Assembly: GCA_963722125.1 (NCBI GenBank)
Contig: CAVRJW010000005.1
Location: forward strand, 1,075,206-1,139,205
Length of the DNA stretch: 64,000 nt
Origin: an uncultured Alphaproteobacteria bacterium
GTDB taxonomy: Bacteria > Pseudomonadota > Alphaproteobacteria > Rhizobiales > Xanthobacteraceae
Reading direction: 5' to 3'
Positions 2,733-63,590 of this stretch are shown here, in pieces. Position numbers and translations under genes: made by a program. Within the stretch, counting starts at the first letter, position 1; every line of letters starts with the position of its first letter. The notes beneath the pieces were generated by a model. The model had not been told where the DNA came from. It did not search any database and saw nothing but the letters and a program-made list of their open reading frames with translations.

Positions 2733-4043
2733 TCAGGTGCGCGCCCGGCCAATGCTCTCGTAAATGAAGCCGTGTCGGGCGATTTCATCCGGTCGATAAA
2801 CATTGCGCAAATCAACCAGCACCGGCTGCGCCATGATCATCTTCAGGCGTTTGAAATCCAGCGCCCGGAATTGCTCCCACTCGGTGACAATCACCAGCGC
2901 CGAGGCGCCTTCGGCACAGGAATAGGCGTCGTTACAAAATGTAACGTTGGTGAGGCTGCTCTTGGCCTGCTCCATACCGATCGGATCATAGGCGCGCACC
3001 TTCGCACCCATATCCTGCAACGCAGTGATGAGCGGGATCGACGGCGCTTCGCGCATATCGTCGGTGTTCGGCTTGAAGGTGAGCCCCAGCACTGCGACCG
3101 TTTTCCCGCGCAGTTCGCCGCCAAGCGCCGAAGACACCTTGCGCGCCATCGCGCGTTTGCGGGCGTCGTTGACCGCCGCCACCGCCTCGACGATGCGCAG
3201 CGGCGCGGCATGGTCCTGCGCCGTCTTGATCAGCGCCACGGTATCCTTGGGAAAGCACGAACCGCCGTAACCGGGGCCGGCGTGCAAAAATTTTGAGCCA
3301 ATGCGATTGTCGAGGCCGATGCCGCGCGCGATTTCCTGCACGTCCGCGCCGACTTTTTCGGCGAGATCGGCAATCTCATTGATGAATGTGATCTTGGTGG
3401 CGAGGAACGCGTTGGCGGCGTACTTGATCAGCTCGGCCGTGCGCCGGTCGGTGAACAAAATCGGCGAGCGATTGAGATAGAGCGGCCGGTACAATTCACT
3501 CATGACCTCGCGCGCGCGCGTATCCGCGCTTCCGATCACGATTCGGTCGGGATGTTTGAAATCCTGGATCGCGGCGCCTTCACGCAGGAATTCAGGATTG
3601 GAAACCACCGCACATTCGGCGTCGGGCCGCGTCTCGCGAATGATGCGCTCGACCTCGTCGCCGGTGCCGACCGGTACGGTCGACTTGGTGATCACCACTG
3701 TAAAGCCGTTCAGCGCGCGCGCAATCTCGCGTGCCGCTTCATGGACGAAGCTGAGGTCGGCGAAGCCATCGCCGCGGCGCGAGGGCGTGCCCACCGCGAT
3801 GAAAACCGCATCGGCAGCGGCAACCGCGCCCTGAAGTTCTGTCGCGAATTTGAGGCGGCCGGCGCGCGTATTGGCCGCGACCATGTCGTTAAGCCCGGGC
3901 TCGTAAATCGGCATTTCGCCACGAACCAGGGCCGCAATCTTCGACTTGTCCTTGTCGACGCAGGTCACCTCATGGCCGAAGTCGGCGAAGCAGGCGCCGG
4001 AAACAAGTCCGACATAGCCGGTGCCGATCATGGCAACGCGCAT
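2733..4043 (-). CDS. ugd: UDP-glucose 6-dehydrogenase
   Basis: 436-aa ORF. N-terminal Rossmann motif MRVAMIGTGYVGLVSGACFA, and GGSCFPKD around the catalytic Cys. Length is typical for the family. Confidence 0.93.
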   Translation of the reverse strand: MRVAMIGTGYVGLVSGACFADFGHEVTCVDKDKSKIAALVRGEMPIYEPGLNDMVAANTRAGRLKFATELQGAVAAADAVFIAVGTPSRRGDGFADLSFVHEAAREIARALNGFTVVITKSTVPVGTGDEVERIIRETRPDAECAVVSNPEFLREGAAIQDFKHPDRIVIGSADTRAREVMSELYRPLYLNRSPILFTDRRTAELIKYAANAFLATKITFINEIADLAEKVGADVQEIARGIGLDNRIGSKFLHAGPGYGGSCFPKDTVALIKTAQDHAAPLRIVEAVAAVNDARKRAMARKVSSALGGELRGKTVAVLGLTFKPNTDDMREAPSIPLITALQDMGAKVRAYDPIGMEQAKSSLTNVTFCNDAYSCAEGASALVIVTEWEQFRALDFKRLKMIMAQPVLVDLRNVYRPDEIARHGFIYESIGRART

Positions 4044-11487: not shown

Positions 11488-13314
11488 ATGATCAATCGCA
11501 CGAAGATTTTGTTGCTGGCAACGACGCTGGCCGTTGCCCTGCCGATGAGCGCTAACGCGCAAATACAGCAAGGCGCGCCGGCAAAAGCTGCCCCGGCAAG
11601 GGCAGCTGCTCCGCGTGCCGCGGCGCCCGCGCCGCACATGGCGGCGCCACAGCGCATGGCGGCGCCACAGCGTACGGCTGCGCCACAGCGCATGGCTGCA
11701 CCACAGCGTGCAGCCCCACCACCGCGGATGGCAGCACCATCACGCATGGCGGCGCCGCATACTGCACCTGTTGCACGAGCCGCAACGCCGCATATCGCAC
11801 CGCAACACGCGACGGTCCCACAAAATCGATCGGCTGCGGTGAATTGCAGCGTGCAGCGGAACGAACGCAATGTGCAGCAGAACGAGGTCCGCCAGCAGCG
11901 GGCCCTGCGTCAGCATGGCGCGCAGCCGACCGCGCAAGCACGGACAAATATCCAGGCGCAGCCTCAGGCGAATACGCGTCAAGCGCTGCGCACTGAACGC
12001 AATCTGCGCCGAGGCGAAGCTCGCGAATTGCGCCGCCTACCCGCGTCACAGCGGGCGCAACGACTTGAGCAGATCCAGCAGTCACGCCAGCAACGCGCAC
12101 TGTCGCGGCAACAGCTGGCGCAACCAAACGCTCTGCAATCGCGGTCGAACGCAGCGACCTTGCGTGCCAACCGCCGCGACGGCAGTCCACGCGTGACGGC
12201 TGACGCTGCACGTCAGGGCCGTTTCGCCTCGCGCTTTTCTCAACAAGCCGGCGGCGTGAATGGCGTTAACGGGCGCGATCGCTTTGCTCACGTCGCCGCG
12301 CAACGCGCCTGGCAGCGCGGCCTGCGCGCGGCCTTCGTGCCGTGGTACGGCCCGGTGTTCTGGCCATACGCGTACTCTGACATCTTCGATTATGCATTCT
12401 GGCCCACCGGTTATGACGATGGTTTCTGGGCCTATGCCTATGACGACTTCTTCGACGGCGTATTCTGGGGGCAGTCCGGCCCACCGCAAGGCTACGCTCT
12501 GGACGACTCCTATGGTGGCAGCCCACAAGCCGGAGGCTCTCCGGCCGGCGCCTCAATCGCGGGTGCACCTGCTTCGGCGCAGGCGAGCTATGCCTCCGTG
12601 CAGGAGCTGTGCAAACAACCCGGTAGTGGCATCACTGCGTGGCCCTTCGCCGATATCGAACGCAAGGTCGGGCTCAATGGCGACCAGAAGCAATTGCTCG
12701 GCGATGTGCGCAAGGCGAGCTTGGATGCGGCCGCCGTCTTCAAAGCGTCTTGCCCGGCGGACAATGCCTTCCCTCTGACGCCTCCGGGCCGTCTGGGCGC
12801 GATGACAGCACGGCTTGATGCGACCTTGCAGGCCGTGGAAACGGTGCGGCCGGCGCTGGAGAAGTTCTACGACTCGCTCAACGACGAGCAGAAGGAGCGC
12901 TTCAACGAACTGGGGCCGAAAAACACGGCAACCAACCCCGAGGCCAACTCTGCCGCACAGACCGCAGATGCTTGCAAGCAGCCTAAGCAAGGTCTCTCCA
13001 ACCTGCCGATCGAGAAGATCGAGGATGCCCTCAATCCAACCGACGCGCAGGCAACCGGGCTGAACAACTTGCAGGAAGCGACCAACAAAGCGGTTTCAAT
13101 CATGCAAGCGGCCTGCCCCGACGAAACGCCGATTACGCCGCCGGGACGTCTGGATGCAATGCAGACGCGCCTGCAAGCGATGATCGATGCGGCCAAGACC
13201 GTGAAGCCGGCACTCGACAGCTTCTACGCCTCGCTTACCGGTGAGCAGAAGGCACGCTTCAATCGTATCGGACAGCAGCTGTCGGAGACAGTGGGACAGT
13301 CGAGCAAAAACTGA
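11488..13314 (+). CDS. Periplasmic Spy/CpxP-like (LTXXQ-motif) protein with long repetitive N-terminal region
   Basis: 608 aa, arranged as: signal peptide; MAAPQR hexapeptide repeats; a Q/R-rich segment; an aromatic/acidic segment (FWPYAYSDIFDYAFWP); then two copies of a module containing L(N/T)xxQ motifs (LNGDQKQL, LNDEQKERF, LNPTDAQATGL, LTGEQKARF). Confidence 0.7.
   Translation: MINRTKILLLATTLAVALPMSANAQIQQGAPAKAAPARAAAPRAAAPAPHMAAPQRMAAPQRTAAPQRMAAPQRAAPPPRMAAPSRMAAPHTAPVARAATPHIAPQHATVPQNRSAAVNCSVQRNERNVQQNEVRQQRALRQHGAQPTAQARTNIQAQPQANTRQALRTERNLRRGEARELRRLPASQRAQRLEQIQQSRQQRALSRQQLAQPNALQSRSNAATLRANRRDGSPRVTADAARQGRFASRFSQQAGGVNGVNGRDRFAHVAAQRAWQRGLRAAFVPWYGPVFWPYAYSDIFDYAFWPTGYDDGFWAYAYDDFFDGVFWGQSGPPQGYALDDSYGGSPQAGGSPAGASIAGAPASAQASYASVQELCKQPGSGITAWPFADIERKVGLNGDQKQLLGDVRKASLDAAAVFKASCPADNAFPLTPPGRLGAMTARLDATLQAVETVRPALEKFYDSLNDEQKERFNELGPKNTATNPEANSAAQTADACKQPKQGLSNLPIEKIEDALNPTDAQATGLNNLQEATNKAVSIMQAACPDETPITPPGRLDAMQTRLQAMIDAAKTVKPALDSFYASLTGEQKARFNRIGQQLSETVGQSSKN
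11638..11763 (+). repeat. Seven tandem 18-nt units encoding (M/T/A)AAP(Q/P/S/H)R inside the CpxP-like gene
   Basis: Units begin at 11638, 11656, 11674, 11692, 11710, 11728 and 11746. The first two are near-identical (atggcggcgccacagcgc / ...cgt) and later units degrade. Confidence 0.9.
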
Positions 13315-56041: not shown

Positions 56042-56156
56042 GGACGCCTCCCACTTAATAACTAGCGAACGCAGCGTCCCATGGCGAGTGACGATAGTGG
56101 GGTGTGTAATGCGGCCGGCCTTGTAGGGCGCGGCGATGTGCTGTAAACACTCATTC

Positions 56157-56240
56157 GCGGGGCCCACGACGGTCGCCCCACGCTTCCAAGGCTTGCGAGC
56201 CCAAGCACCGTCTCCTTCGTTTGTGGAGGGGACTAATGCT
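56157..56240 (+). promoter_or_regulatory. Copy A of an ~84-nt structured leader element (candidate cis-regulatory RNA), upstream of the TauE gene
   Basis: 73 of 84 nt are identical to 57184-57267. It has three predicted hairpins, and the last pairs ctcc with the ggagg Shine-Dalgarno sequence. It ends in an ATG that opens only a 5-codon ORF (MLTAS). Confidence 0.45.
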
Positions 56241-56398
56241 TACTGCAAGCTAGCAACTCAGCAGACAATTTTGTAATTCGATTACGGCGCATTGGCCGCC
56301 GCGATCGTCAATATATTACGTTCGGGGTCTCGAGGCCTCCCCGTCAGATGCGACGCCGTCCATCCAAAGCGCTGACTGCTTTCACTCGGGAGTAATCC

Positions 56399-57139
56399 AT
56401 GGATGGCACGGTTCTGACGATTTTTCTCTTGGCGTCATTTTTGGGCGGTGTGACCTCCGGGCTCGCCGGTTTCGCCATGGGCCTGGTGGTGTCTGGCGTT
56501 TATTTGCACATCCTGACACCGATCCAGACCGCAGCTTTGATAGTCGGATACGGCTTCGTGACGCAAGGCTACGGCGTTTGGGCGTTGCGACATGCTGTCC
56601 GTTGGCGAAGTGCGGCACCATTCATCGCCGGTGGACTGTTTGGCGTGCCCGCAGGCACGATGCTGCTCACATATATCGACCCGGCCCATATGCGCTTTGG
56701 AGTCGGCTTGCTGCTGGTTATTTACAGTATCTACAGTTTAGCGAAGCCGGCGATAAAATTGACCCACGAAGGCGTTCCGACCGAAGTCGGCGTCGGATTT
56801 CTCAACGGCCTACTCGCCGGATTAACAGGCTTGGTTGGAATTGTCGTCGTGATTTGGTGCCAATTGCGCAACTGGCCGAAAGACGTCCAGCGCGCAATCT
56901 TCCAGCCGGTACTGCTCGCGACTATTTTGACCAGCACGGTATCGTTGAGTGTCGCCGGCGCCGTCACTGCTGAAACCGCCAAATTGTACCTGCTCGGCCT
57001 GCCTTGCATGCTGGCCGGGACATGGGCCGGTCTCAAACTTTACGGCAAACTCGACGACGCGGCCTTCCGCAAAGTGATCCTGATACTGTTGTTTGTGTCA
57101 GGCGTGTCGCTGGTCGTGCCGTTCTCGATGTTCCAATGA
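56399..57139 (+). CDS. TauE/SafE (TSUP) family sulfite/anion exporter
   Basis: 246-aa membrane protein with two TSUP-like halves (GGVTSGLAGFAMG..., GFLNGLLAGLTGL...). Confidence 0.85.
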   Translation: MDGTVLTIFLLASFLGGVTSGLAGFAMGLVVSGVYLHILTPIQTAALIVGYGFVTQGYGVWALRHAVRWRSAAPFIAGGLFGVPAGTMLLTYIDPAHMRFGVGLLLVIYSIYSLAKPAIKLTHEGVPTEVGVGFLNGLLAGLTGLVGIVVVIWCQLRNWPKDVQRAIFQPVLLATILTSTVSLSVAGAVTAETAKLYLLGLPCMLAGTWAGLKLYGKLDDAAFRKVILILLFVSGVSLVVPFSMFQ

Positions 57140-57183
57140 CAAGTCCGCTTGCCGTCGGGCATACGCTGCGATACCAATTCCAA

Positions 57184-57267
57184 GCGGGGCCTGCGACGGT
57201 CGCCCCGCGCTTTCAAGGCTTGCAAGCCCAAGCGCCGTCTCCTTCGTTCACGGAGGGGACCCATGCT
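57184..57267 (+). promoter_or_regulatory. Copy B of the structured leader element, directly preceding the rhodanese-ChrB gene start codon
   Basis: Same architecture as copy A. Its terminal ATG (57263) is the start codon of the downstream gene. Confidence 0.5.
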
Positions 57268-58088
57268 GTCTCCGAGCTATTCGATATCACCGAAAGATCT
57301 CTGGAACGCGATCGCGACGCGCAATGCGCCGCAACTCGTCGACGTACGGCGGCGCGATACCTACGAAGCATCACCGCACTTGCTGCCGGGCGCCGTCTGG
57401 CGCGAAGCCTCCAAAGCCCGAACATGGGCGACAGAATTTGATGTCACGCGCCCGATTGTCGCCGCGTGCAAAGCCGGTCACGAAATGAGCCAAAGCACGG
57501 TCGCACAGTTACGCGCCGACGGCATCGACGCCCGTGTGTTGGAAGGCGGGTATGAGGGTTGGGCGAAAGCTGGCCTGCCCTTTATTGCCAAAGCCGAACT
57601 TGAACGACTCGCGCCGAAGCGTCCGAGCATCTGGGTCACACGCCGGCGTCCCAAAATCGATCGCATCGCGTGCCCGTGGCTGATCCTCCGCTTTCTCGAT
57701 CCGCAAGCGCGCATCCTGTTCGTCGATCCCGATCAGGTTGTCAGTGCCGCGCGCGAAAGCGGCGGCGTTCCATTCGACATCAAGGATGTTGAGCTCAGTC
57801 ACGTCGGTGAACGCTGCTCGTTCGACACGATGCTCCAGCTATTCGGCCTGGAAGGTGAACCGTCCTTGGCGCGCCCTCGCATTGATCGTTCGTGGCGCCG
57901 ACACTGCGCGCCCCGACATTGCGGCGGAAGCGGCGGGATTGCACGCCATATCGCTTGGTCTTTCTGCGCTTGCAGGCGACGACGACCACGGACTGCTTGA
58001 TCGCGGCTTCATGGTTTACGATGCTTTATTCGCATGGCTGCGATTTGCCGCCGAAGAGCGTCATAATTGGCCGGCAAAGGCAGCGTGA
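57263..58088 (+). pseudogene. Rhodanese-domain / ChrB-C-terminal-domain fusion protein (chromate resistance-associated), one frameshift
   Basis: N-terminal rhodanese-like region (LVDVRRRDTYEASPHLLPGAVW...ACKAGHEMS). ChrB_C-like region (IWVTRRRPKIDRIACPWLILRFLDP). The sense continues in the frame of ORF 57738-58088 (LALIVRGADTARPD...) after the CCC run at 57874-57876. Confidence 0.75.
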
Positions 58089-58142: not shown

Positions 58143-59423
58143 ATGGTGTGGCTCAAGATCGGCTGCATCAATTTCGGCGGACCGGCCGGACAGATCGCGC
58201 TCATGCATCGCGTCGTGGTCGACGAAAAGAAATGGGTGGATGAGGCCCGTTTCCTCCACGCACTCAATTTCTGCATGCTCCTGCCGGGCCCCGAAGCGCA
58301 AAAACTCGCGACCTATCTCGGCTGGCTGCTGCACGGCGTTCGCGGAGGGTTGAGCGCCGGAATTCTCTTTGTTCTTCCGGGCGCCTTCGTCATGTTGGGC
58401 CTGAGCCTGCTTTATGCGCTCGGGCGCGGCGTCTCGGCCATTGATGGCGCATTGTTCGGCATCAAGGCCGCCGTGCTGGTCATCGTGGTTGAAGCGCTGA
58501 TCCGCATCGGCAAGCGCGCGCTTAAGACCACTCTTCTTCTTTCGCTGGCGGCCGCAGCATTTGTCGGCATTTTCTTTTTATCCCTTCCGTTTCCGCTGAT
58601 CGTCGCCGCAGCTGCCCTCATCGGCTATCTTGTCGCCCGCAAAGCCCCCAATCAGCTGGGATTAAGCCGAAAAGCCGAAAACGTGGCGGCACCGGCGGAA
58701 AATCGCTGGCGGCAGTTCATCATCGCGTCCGTGGTCGGCTTGATTGTGTGGTGGATACCGATCGCGCTTGCCGCCGTTGCGCTTGGCCCCACACATGTCC
58801 TCGTGAGCATCGGCGCTTTTTTCTCCAAACTTGCCGTCGTGAGTTTTGGCGGCGCCTATGCGCTGCTTGCTTATATGGCGCAACAGGCGGTGGAAACCTA
58901 CGGCTGGATGACGGCGCCAGAGATGGTTGACGGATTGGGACTTGCCGAAACGACGCCAGGTCCACTCATCCTCGTCACACAATTCGTCGGCTTTCTTGCC
59001 GCTTTTCGCGATGCAGCCCCTTTCTCGCCGATTACGGCTGGCGTGCTCGGCGCGGCAATGACGACATGGGTGACCTTCGTGCCGTCCATGCTTTGGATTT
59101 TTGCCGGCGCCCCGTTCGTCGATCCTCTACGAGCCAACCGGCAGCTTTCGGGAGCGCTCGCTGCGATTACCGCGGCCGTTGTCGGTGTGATCCTGAATCT
59201 ATCGGTGTGGTTCGCATTGCATGTGCTGTTCGGAAAAGTCACAGAAATGCACGCCGGGCCGTTACGCTGGTATGACTTTGACCCGCTGGCGCTCGATCTC
59301 CGCGCAGCTGCTTTGGCGGCGATTGCAGCGGTGCTGGCGTTCGGACTGCACCGCAGCCTGATCGAGGTCGTGGTCGCAATGGCTGCGCTCGGCGTAGCCG
59401 TGCAGTTGGCGCTCGGGAGCTAG
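58143..59423 (+). CDS. chrA: Chromate ion transporter ChrA
   Basis: Two CHR domains (FGGPAGQIALMHR..., SFGGAYALLAYM...). Conserved-looking residues (RPSFAEAF) lie in frame upstream of the first ATG, so the true start is unresolved. Confidence 0.88.
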   Translation: MVWLKIGCINFGGPAGQIALMHRVVVDEKKWVDEARFLHALNFCMLLPGPEAQKLATYLGWLLHGVRGGLSAGILFVLPGAFVMLGLSLLYALGRGVSAIDGALFGIKAAVLVIVVEALIRIGKRALKTTLLLSLAAAAFVGIFFLSLPFPLIVAAAALIGYLVARKAPNQLGLSRKAENVAAPAENRWRQFIIASVVGLIVWWIPIALAAVALGPTHVLVSIGAFFSKLAVVSFGGAYALLAYMAQQAVETYGWMTAPEMVDGLGLAETTPGPLILVTQFVGFLAAFRDAAPFSPITAGVLGAAMTTWVTFVPSMLWIFAGAPFVDPLRANRQLSGALAAITAAVVGVILNLSVWFALHVLFGKVTEMHAGPLRWYDFDPLALDLRAAALAAIAAVLAFGLHRSLIEVVVAMAALGVAVQLALGS

Positions 59424-63243: not shown

Positions 63244-63504
63244 ATGACCAAATCCAAGATCACAGTAGCCACCCTGACCGCGCTCACACTGATCGGCACT
63301 CTCGCCGCTACCAGCGGCAGCGCGCAGGCCCATTCGCATTTAGGTTGGGGCATCGGCGCCGGCTTTGCCGCAGGCGCGCTGATCGGCGCAGCCGCAGCGT
63401 CTACCGGCCCCGTTTATGTGACGCCCGGCTATCGCGATTGCCGGCTTGTCGAGCGCTACGACCGCTGGGGCAATGTGCGCGTCATTCGGGTTTGCGACTA
63501 CTGA
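63244..63504 (+). CDS. Small secreted glycine-zipper-like protein
   Basis: Signal peptide MTKSKITVATLTALTLIGTLAATSGSAQA, a Gly/Ala-rich segment (GWGIGAGFAAGALIGAAAA) and a two-Cys C-terminus. Confidence 0.5.
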   Translation: MTKSKITVATLTALTLIGTLAATSGSAQAHSHLGWGIGAGFAAGALIGAAAASTGPVYVTPGYRDCRLVERYDRWGNVRVIRVCDY

Positions 63505-63557
63505 TTTCACCCGCTCAGATCGGCGCCTGCCCCGTCCAACCTTGCGTCGATCTAGAT

Positions 63558-63590
63558 GACCCGCCCGGCACGTCCCCGTCCGGGCGGGTC
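63558..63590. terminator. GC-rich hairpin between the convergent small-protein gene and the porin gene
   Basis: gacccgcccgg-cacgtccccgt-ccgggcgggtc (11-bp stem) followed by aactcttt. Confidence 0.7.

Follow-up and report, generated by a model that had tools for sequence, protein, structure and literature searches.

Why should the same leader of some 84 nucleotides (nt) stand twice within little more than a kilobase of a bacterial genome, once upstream of a gene for a TauE/SafE-family anion permease and once directly in front of a gene that joins a rhodanese domain to a ChrB_C domain? The question is raised by a 64,000-nt stretch of DNA from an uncultured alphaproteobacterium of the family Xanthobacteraceae (contig CAVRJW010000005.1), here called the window and used at its full length for all coordinates unless a locus from another genome or metagenome contig is named. 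An original prediction had drawn attention to the two copies – A and B – as leaders that mask a Shine–Dalgarno (SD) sequence. The answer that we consider likely is that both are cis-acting 5′-leader RNAs of the chrB class, an orphan riboswitch candidate since 2017 that is tied to chromate resistance, and that each contains a pseudoknot in competition with an SD-masking hairpin. What appears to be new is the sequence subtype that they represent, the three-way covariation that fixes the competing structures, and a tandem layout with a mini open reading frame (mini-ORF) before the TauE gene; a pseudoknot as such is already known for the class, the chrB RNA being among the cases in which covariation revealed one in the CaCoFold work (Rivas 2020; PMC7657543).

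A repeated leader of the chrB class

An ungapped match between the two leaders, standing far above any other similarity between intergenic regions of the window, had been reported in the original prediction, and both points were confirmed: 56157–56240 and 57184–57267 align with identity at 73 of 84 positions, and the pair, which a repeat finder extends to 96 nt (56157–56252 and 57184–57279, 84% identity), is by far the longest direct repeat within the 64 kb. The copies lie 1027 nt apart. When the element was expressed as a degenerate pattern, its only matches in the window were copies A and B, with 0.00 expected from 100 shuffles. Copy A is 87% identical to copy B, 89% identical to the element L002p and 76–83% identical to the distal copies of other genomes that are discussed below.

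Both copies lie on the forward strand and follow one plan. Copy A (56157–56233) and copy B (57184–57260) open with helix P1, formed by 56157–56163 with 56175–56181 in the former and by 57184–57190 with 57202–57208 in the latter. The P1 loop carries the motif GACGGU (56168–56173; 57195–57200), one strand of the pseudoknot, whose other strand is ACCGUC (56207–56212) in copy A and GCCGUC (57234–57239) in copy B. Between the two strands lie a short helix P2 (56190–56193 with 56198–56201; 57217–57220 with 57225–57228) and a conserved CAAGC (56202–56206; 57229–57233). The leader ends in the hairpin P3 (56210–56219 with 56224–56233; 57237–57246 with 57251–57260), whose 3′ strand holds, and thereby masks, the SD sequence GGAGG (56225–56229; 57252–57256). 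An ATG follows 2 nt beyond the stem in both copies – the sequence after P3 reads CUAAUG in copy A and CCCAUG in copy B – and in copy B it is the start codon (57263–57265) of the rhodanese-ChrB gene.

Where copies A and B disagree (11 element positions: 9, 10, 24, 30, 41, 51, 66–68, 78 and 79), pairing is almost everywhere left untouched. Two of these positions (9 and 10) belong to the P1 loop, one (30) to a linker and one (41) to the P2 loop; the P3 loop accounts for 66 and 67, and the stretch from P3 to the AUG for 78 and 79. At position 51 either nucleotide, A or G, forms the pseudoknot pair with U17, and at position 68 U and C alike pair with G63. Ten of the 11 are thus pairing-neutral, and the sole break is a C2–A24 mismatch in P1 of copy A.

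Each copy is preceded by a promoter-like site on the same strand: 56121–56149 before copy A, with TTGTAG (56121–56126) and TAAACA (56144–56149) separated by 17 nt and 7 nt left to P1, and 57149–57177 before copy B, with TTGCCG (57149–57154), the same 17-nt spacing, TACCAA (57172–57177) and 6 nt to P1. Among 70 rhodanese-ChrB-class elements, the best −10-like hexamer ends 6–7 nt 5′ of P1 in 38, with control regions flat, and this positional peak, together with the consensus match, suggests promoters before both copies. No intrinsic terminator, sought as a GC-rich hairpin with a U tract, was found at either copy.

The related motifs chrB-a and chrB-b were described in alphaproteobacterial 5′ untranslated regions of chromate-resistance genes (Weinberg 2017; PMC5737381). 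The original prediction had guessed at membership of this class, and the guess was borne out, as chrB-b and chrB-a are the sole Rfam families that match either copy, in both cases below the gathering cut-offs of 36.5 bits (chrB-b, RF03086) and 43.9 bits (chrB-a, RF03078). A scan of the whole window at these cut-offs gave no match; the chrB matches appear only in E-value mode on short stretches and drop out at whole-window scale. Within that mode, copy B scores 28.2 bits with chrB-b (E = 0.0016) and 19.5 bits with chrB-a, the latter over the whole 80-nt model to the AUG, and copy A 25.0 and 15.4 bits, respectively. The matches span the full model (chrB-b positions 1–49 of 49).

How far the leader is shared became clear from 80 genome loci, picked by the presence of a rhodanese-ChrB homolog alone in species-representative genomes. 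The homologous proteins are 274 residues long and mostly labelled Pseudolabrys, the relatives being Pseudolabrys and other Hyphomicrobiales. A leader of the same architecture lies directly 5′ of the rhodanese-ChrB gene in 77 of the 80: a GGGG...CCCC hairpin, an AGGC...GCC hairpin, (C/G)AAG, a tail, and an SD-covering hairpin that ends 2–6 nt before the start. These 77 leaders form a continuum that runs from chrB-a through chrB-b to the subtype seen in the window, with CCAAG kept across the subtypes. One end of this continuum is set apart by R1, a covariance model built for the window subtype: it gives 95.4 bits on copy A and 101.4 bits on copy B, and 55–102 bits on the leaders of loci L001–L010, L021 and L028 and on the distal copies, with no other leader exceeding 40 bits. 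The window-type elements next to rhodanese-ChrB in L001–L010 and L021 all fall short of the Rfam cut-offs, and one window-type distal element (L029, 2372–2422) reaches 36.8 bits with chrB-b, just above 36.5. From the sub-cut-off chrB-b scores and the gap in R1 scores, the window elements are, judged by sequence, a third subtype on the edge of chrB-b.

With chrB-b they share the GGGG/CCCC P1, a short second hairpin, CCAAGC and a tail complementary to the P1 loop, as well as their occurrence in alphaproteobacteria, in 5′ leaders of chromate-resistance-related genes; true chrB-b elements even stand beside window-type ones in the same leaders. The pseudoknot differs, however, being GCAGA:UCUGC in chrB-b and GACGGU:ACCGUC in the window type, as does P2 (GACGG/CCGUC as opposed to GGC(U)/(A)GCC), and the P1–P2 linker of the window type is longer. 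The likeness to chrB-a extends over the 80-nt layout to the AUG – P1, an AGGC...GCC hairpin, (C/G)AAG, a tail pairing with the P1 loop, an SD-covering hairpin a few nt 5′ of the start codon, and the same 2–4-nt overlap between pseudoknot and P3 – whereas the chrB-a pseudoknot is UGCGAU:AUCGCG and its P3, GCGUCC/GGACGC, is closed by a long loop, compared with 10 bp and a 4-nt loop in the window type. The class may be broader still, as L011, L013 and L014 (at about 3390–3500) combine a GGGA/UCCC P1 with a second hairpin of much greater length and score below both Rfam cut-offs, which suggests further unmodelled chrB subtypes.

Helices, pseudoknot and the proposed switch

Structure statistics were drawn from 122 model-aligned sequences, 117 of them distinct. 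Among the distinct ones, 97.9% of cells are paired in P1, 99.3% in the pseudoknot, 95.3% in P2 and 96.8% in P3; 13–14 pairs have changed on both sides, which none of 500 shuffles reaches, and pairing falls to 39–61% when the partners are slid by 1–3 columns. Two hairpins of the original prediction, P1 and the SD-masking P3, are thereby upheld (96.9% of cells paired, 13 pairs changed on both sides, 0/500 shuffles), with 8 of the 10 pairs of P3 changed on both sides. A further one, gcttg-N6-caagc, did not survive the comparison: not one of its pairs has changed on both sides, and the inner three are disrupted in 20–55% of sequences. What is conserved as the second helix is GGC(U)/(A)GCC, which is shorter, and CAAGC is conserved as sequence, CAAG being kept in every subtype while the adjacent hairpin varies.

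Nor did the long-range helix hold that had been proposed as the alternative partner of the SD region, between that region and cgcccc(a/g)cg: its cells are 77.1% paired compared with 77.7% after shuffling, 415 of 500 shuffles reach its covariation score, and its supposedly compensatory pair 24:68 is unpaired in 32 of the 117 sequences. The pairing that had been overlooked is the pseudoknot between GACGGU of the P1 loop and (A/G)CCGUC, which comprises 6 bp in both window copies. Since it was absent from the alignment model, it did not guide the alignment. In a MAFFT alignment of 18 genome sequences gathered without a search pattern it is 100% paired, and all three of the pairs that the metagenome search pattern left free change on both sides, the second being A–U in 73 sequences, G–U in 23, G–C in 19 and unpaired in none. 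Other subtypes have pseudoknots of their own, among them UGCGAU:AUCGCG, CGCAGA:UCUGCG, UUGGC:GCCAG, GCGGA:UCCGC, UGCAA:UUGCA and UGCGAA:UUCGCG.

The last three nucleotides of the pseudoknot 3′ strand, GUC (56210–56212 in copy A, 57237–57239 in copy B), are at the same time the first three of the P3 5′ strand, so that the pseudoknot and the full 10-bp P3 are mutually exclusive. The corresponding alignment columns, 84–86, have alternative partners in the P1 loop and at the 3′ end of P3, and column 85 covaries with both: the triplets of loop, column 85 and P3 read A-U-A in 68 sequences, G-C-G in 19, G-U-A in 16 and G-U-G in 7. This dual covariation is a switch signature, and three nucleotides selected for two pairings offer a concrete, testable switching mechanism. 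The earlier proposal of two exclusive pairings of the SD region was partly right, in that P3 does have a maintained competitor, which is, however, the pseudoknot with its three-nucleotide overlap and not the long-range helix.

The same arrangement recurs across the class: pseudoknot and P3 strands overlap by 2–4 nt in at least 53 of 75 parsed leaders of all subtypes, numbers that are lower bounds and indicate a trend only, the cross-subtype parsers being crude and the CAAG anchor misplaced in several window-type leaders. The overlap sequences are unrelated between subtypes – GCG in chrB-a, UGUG or UGCG in chrB-b. In energetic terms, the reduction of P3 from 10 to 7 bp takes copy A from −13.7 to −6.1 kcal/mol and copy B from −15.4 to −8.1 kcal/mol, and the pseudoknot duplex is worth about −10 kcal/mol. 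Loss and gain leave the two states close in energy, as for a switch.

On the mechanism that we propose, the RNA would probably start a few nt before P1 and fold into P1, the short P2, a single-stranded CAAGC and a P3 with the SD sequence as its 3′ strand. A signal – a small ligand or a protein – would then stabilise the pseudoknotted aptamer, P3 would shrink from 10 to 7 bp and lose about 7.5 kcal/mol, the ribosome would gain access and translation would rise. The competition between the pseudoknot and a separate SD-masking hairpin suggests such an ON switch, which would suit resistance genes, and by this route copy B would control the rhodanese-ChrB(–ChrA) unit. The unpaired nucleotides common to the three subtypes are few – CAAG together with some nucleotides of the P1 loop and linker – which narrows the binding site for a ligand or protein, and the subtypes could serve as natural specificity controls in binding experiments. 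As to the signal, the link with a TauE-family permease and a rhodanese points to sulfur oxyanions beside chromate as candidates.

Gene context and the tandem leader before TauE

When metagenome contigs were scanned with an exact pattern, the window subtype was found in at least 120 of them, in addition to about 13 genome loci. Among the 136 pattern matches listed, a rhodanese-ChrB gene lies downstream in 58, its start directly after P3; a TauE gene in 45, its start almost always 130–212 nt after the pattern; and a ChrA gene in 15, either immediately or behind a short ORF remnant. Most of the ChrA proteins in the last group, among the matches listed, have an N-terminal extension. None of the three gene classes was detected downstream of 10 of these matches, and the contig ends within 150 nt in the remaining 8. 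A separate count puts the matches followed by a detected gene of one of the three classes at 124 of 136. A looser rerun, combined with the genome loci and the window, brought the total to 154 elements, 51 of them in the TauE class. Setting aside two chance pattern matches (L103 and L200), every true element in about 200 loci is sense-oriented to its downstream gene and none lies inside a gene. An abundant third subtype is thus invisible to annotation at the Rfam cut-offs.

Some loci depart from the three common contexts. In L081, a window-type element (3156–3246) lies about 130 nt before an MFS-family transporter gene (PF07690, E = 3e-16), and in L136 (258–344) a 290-residue ORF with no Pfam match begins right after the SD hairpin. 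In L165 (2615–2840), L167, L199, L129 and L179 the rhodanese-ChrB gene is reduced to an ORF of 23–65 codons (MHSASYF...) behind an intact leader; in the first three, the stop codon of the remnant abuts the chrA start as TGAATG, an overlap that suggests translational coupling. Two subtypes can also occur in one genome, L029 having a window-type and chrB-b tandem (2368–2577) before TauE and a chrB-b element (3402–3451) before rhodanese-ChrB.

In the window itself, copy B is followed by the rhodanese-ChrB_C gene (57263–58088, forward strand; Pfam PF00581 and PF09828). By its Pfam domains, the protein has kept ChrB_C, and a rhodanese domain replaces the N-terminal DNA-binding part of ChrB. Near 57875 its reading frame is shifted by +1 through an additional C in gcgcgccctcgc: residues 1–204 of the 274-residue homolog P0003 correspond to 57263–57874 and residues 205–274 to 57876–58085 in the next frame. 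The split gene is either a pseudogene or an assembly error. Next comes the gene for a 426-residue ChrA chromate transporter (58143–59423, forward strand; PF02417, E = 6.8e-70), which is probably in one operon with it. On the other side, a short-chain dehydrogenase gene (56041–55286, minus strand) runs divergently from the leader of TauE.

The TauE gene (56399–57139, forward strand; 246 residues; PF01925, E = 4.8e-28) stands in a different relation to its leader. The original prediction had placed the element before TauE and rhodanese-ChrB alike, with an ATG directly after the SD-masking hairpin of each copy. For copy B this holds, its ATG being the rhodanese-ChrB start and its position that of a leader in direct control of the gene, but the ATG of copy A (56236) is not the TauE start, which lies 163 nt further on. 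Directly after the SD hairpin of copy A we find instead a mini-ORF of five codons (56236–56253, forward strand; ATG CTT ACT GCA AGC TAG, MLTAS*), and a third element lies between it and TauE.

The similarity of copies A and B continues for about 16 nt past the ATG (ATGCTTACTGCAAGCTAG compared with ATGCTGTCTCCGAGCTAT), which indicates that copy A bears a remnant of the first codons of rhodanese-ChrB (N-terminus MLSPSY...). In the TauE class, the number of codons counted from the canonical ATG is exactly 5 in 28 of 51 and 4–6 in 33 of 51 among the matches listed. TAG, TGA and TAA all occur as stop codons and the peptides differ (MLFSG, MLCSG, MRAGP, MLIGR and MLTAS).

The third element, at 56323–56375 on the forward strand, is a degenerate chrB-b-like sequence (chrB-b 18.8 bits, E = 0.37, with no chrB-a match) that directly precedes the TauE SD sequence (GGGAG, 56388–56392) and the ATG at 56399. 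It reads CCAAAGC where chrB-b has CCAAGC, and by eye no convincing pairing was found in it between P1 loop and tail, where relatives show clear GCGGC:GCUGC and GCGGU:ACCGU pairings. At the equivalent site, L001, L005, L006 and L007 have a chrB-b element above the Rfam cut-off: in the last three, which have no distal copy, TauE lies behind that element alone, and in L001 the chrB-b element lies behind a window-type distal copy. Above-cut-off chrB-b elements occur between the distal copy and TauE in 17 of 19 tandem loci sampled, which makes the TauE leader two chrB-type elements in tandem, about 30–100 nt apart. In the closest relatives of the window, L148 and L169, the proximal element is likewise below the cut-off, and in this clade – the window, L148 and L169 – the third element seems to be decaying. 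Copy A would then gate the five-codon mini-ORF as the first of two tandem elements, the second of which, at 56323–56375, would hold the TauE SD sequence.

Alternatives, parallels and minor features

Several observations weigh against reading copies A and B as chrB-class leaders that switch. Chromate sensing has been suspected for chrB RNAs, but in vitro they bound neither chromate nor related chemicals (PMC5737381), and our literature search for a chrB ligand found no report after 2017. Seven bp of P3 still cover the SD sequence when the pseudoknot has formed, so that the ON state is a matter of inference, and pseudoknot and P3 could act as a tuner rather than as a binary switch. The covariation figures, too, have to be read with care: three of the six pseudoknot pairs were set in advance by the pattern with which the metagenome sequences were collected, the sequences are related and the counts therefore overstate independent events, and the folding of the single sequences is unremarkable (z = −1.6 and −1.9 in sense, −1.1 and +0.3 in antisense orientation). 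An effect of copy A on TauE, 163 nt downstream, is conjectural; the canonical ATG of the mini-ORF is missing in about 10 of 51 TauE-class relatives among the matches listed, and the C-over-G skew associated with Rho loading is absent from the spacer between the tandem elements (C/G 1.06, GC 48%). Finally, the locus looks partly decayed, with its frameshifted rhodanese-ChrB gene, its weak third element and the P1 mismatch of copy A.

The failure of the RNA alone to bind chromate or its analogues in vitro (PMC5737381) also speaks for a different sensor. The pseudoknotted fold of the leader could be bound by a protein – rhodanese-ChrB_C, whose gene lies just downstream, or another factor – that senses chromate or sulfur stress and sets translation in the manner of an autoregulatory leader, a possibility that we regard as unlikely. 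It would fit the presence of the leader before 77 of 80 rhodanese-ChrB homolog genes and the make-up of the window protein, which retains ChrB_C with a rhodanese in place of the N-terminal part; in ChrB of TnOtChr from Ochrobactrum tritici, the residues needed for chromate induction (R180, R187 and H229) are C-terminal and those for DNA binding (R18 and R23) N-terminal (PMC3817168). Yet the ChrA-class loci with 9–14 kb of sequence have an intact RNA and nearby rhodanese-ChrB only as short remnants, small-ligand aptamers typically show such invariant unpaired nucleotides and so compact a pseudoknot, and RNA-binding activity is not known for ChrB_C. A bolder form of the idea, to which we give a similarly small chance, would make rhodanese-ChrB_C a stress-sensing RNA-binding regulator that has replaced the DNA-binding ChrB and has the chrB RNAs as its target, the TauE tandem and mini-ORF forming a two-stage translational gate; if true, it would account for the negative in vitro binding results with RNA alone.

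It is less probable that copy A is a neutral leftover of a duplicated rhodanese-ChrB leader and its first codons, with TauE controlled by the adjacent chrB-b-like element only. The homology does enter the first 16 nt of coding sequence, where the sixth codon is a stop, P1 has its C–A mismatch, and the mini-ORF neither conserves its peptide nor always keeps its ATG. A neutral leftover would hardly recur, however, in about 50 or more TauE loci at 130–212 nt 5′ of the gene, nor would 33 of 51 listed mini-ORFs keep 4–6 codons despite differing stop codons; the distal TauE-class copies keep their helices (P1 98.8%, pseudoknot 99.1% and P3 94.6% paired, with extra pair types present), which argues against a neutral remnant, and in the clade of the window it is the proximal element that has decayed, not copy A. 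Very improbable, in our view, is a DNA operator in which inverted repeats serve a transcription factor such as a ChrB-type regulator. P1 and P3 are indeed inverted repeats near a promoter-like site, and TnOtChr ChrB binds its own promoter region (PMC3817168), but 12% of all pairs on the sense strand are G–U, and in double-stranded DNA, or read from the opposite strand, these would become A–C mismatches; a pseudoknot and three-way covariation would be meaningless for an operator. The element, moreover, has a fixed orientation to the gene that follows, lies 3′ of the −10-like box and includes the SD sequence, the AT-rich repeat that forms the TnOtChr operator does not resemble it, and the local ChrB_C protein is without the N-terminal DNA-binding part. 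As for a dispersed repeat – of the repetitive extragenic palindromic or miniature inverted-repeat transposable element type – that happens to occupy two adjacent intergenic regions, two copies 1027 nt apart, both with inverted repeats, might bring it to mind. There are, however, only two matches in 64 kb, and in the 200 loci virtually all true matches lie in sense orientation before rhodanese-ChrB, TauE or ChrA, two lie before other ORFs and none is intragenic; with this fixed gene context and only two copies in the window the explanation is refuted, and we give it next to no weight.

The preferred reading, that of chrB-class leaders with competing pairings, has parallels among established riboswitches. 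Tandem leaders are known from paired thiamine pyrophosphate riboswitches and from the combination of S-adenosylmethionine (SAM) and adenosylcobalamin riboswitches. The TauE leader resembles them in having two complete elements of one class in series (at least 17 of 19 sampled loci) but differs in that the elements are of different subtypes and are SD-masking platforms, not terminators, and in that the first would drive a five-codon mini-ORF. In the SAM-II and preQ1-II riboswitches, the ligand-bound pseudoknot itself buries the SD sequence, making them OFF switches. They share with the leaders described here a compact pseudoknotted aptamer adjoining the ribosome-binding site, with control at translation initiation; sequence and family are unrelated, however, and in the present leaders the SD-masking hairpin is a structure of its own, with which the pseudoknot competes. 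Nearby pairs of RNAs have also been noted for the nhaA-I motif (Weinberg 2017; PMC5737381). TnOtChr, finally, is comparable as a regulated chromate-resistance operon with a ChrB_C-domain protein (PMC3817168), but it is without a GC-rich structured leader, the only characterised ChrB operator being its AT-rich repeat, and its ChrB, unlike the window protein, has the N-terminal DNA-binding part.

Two further features of the window lie apart from these genes. At 63487–63590, on the forward strand, there is a match to the Rhizobiales-2 RNA (RF01723) with 39.8 bits, just under the 40-bit gathering cut-off. At 11622–11693, according to the repeat finder, a 36-nt unit with a GGCGGCGCCACAGCGCAT-like sequence occurs three times head to tail at a spacing of 18 nt.

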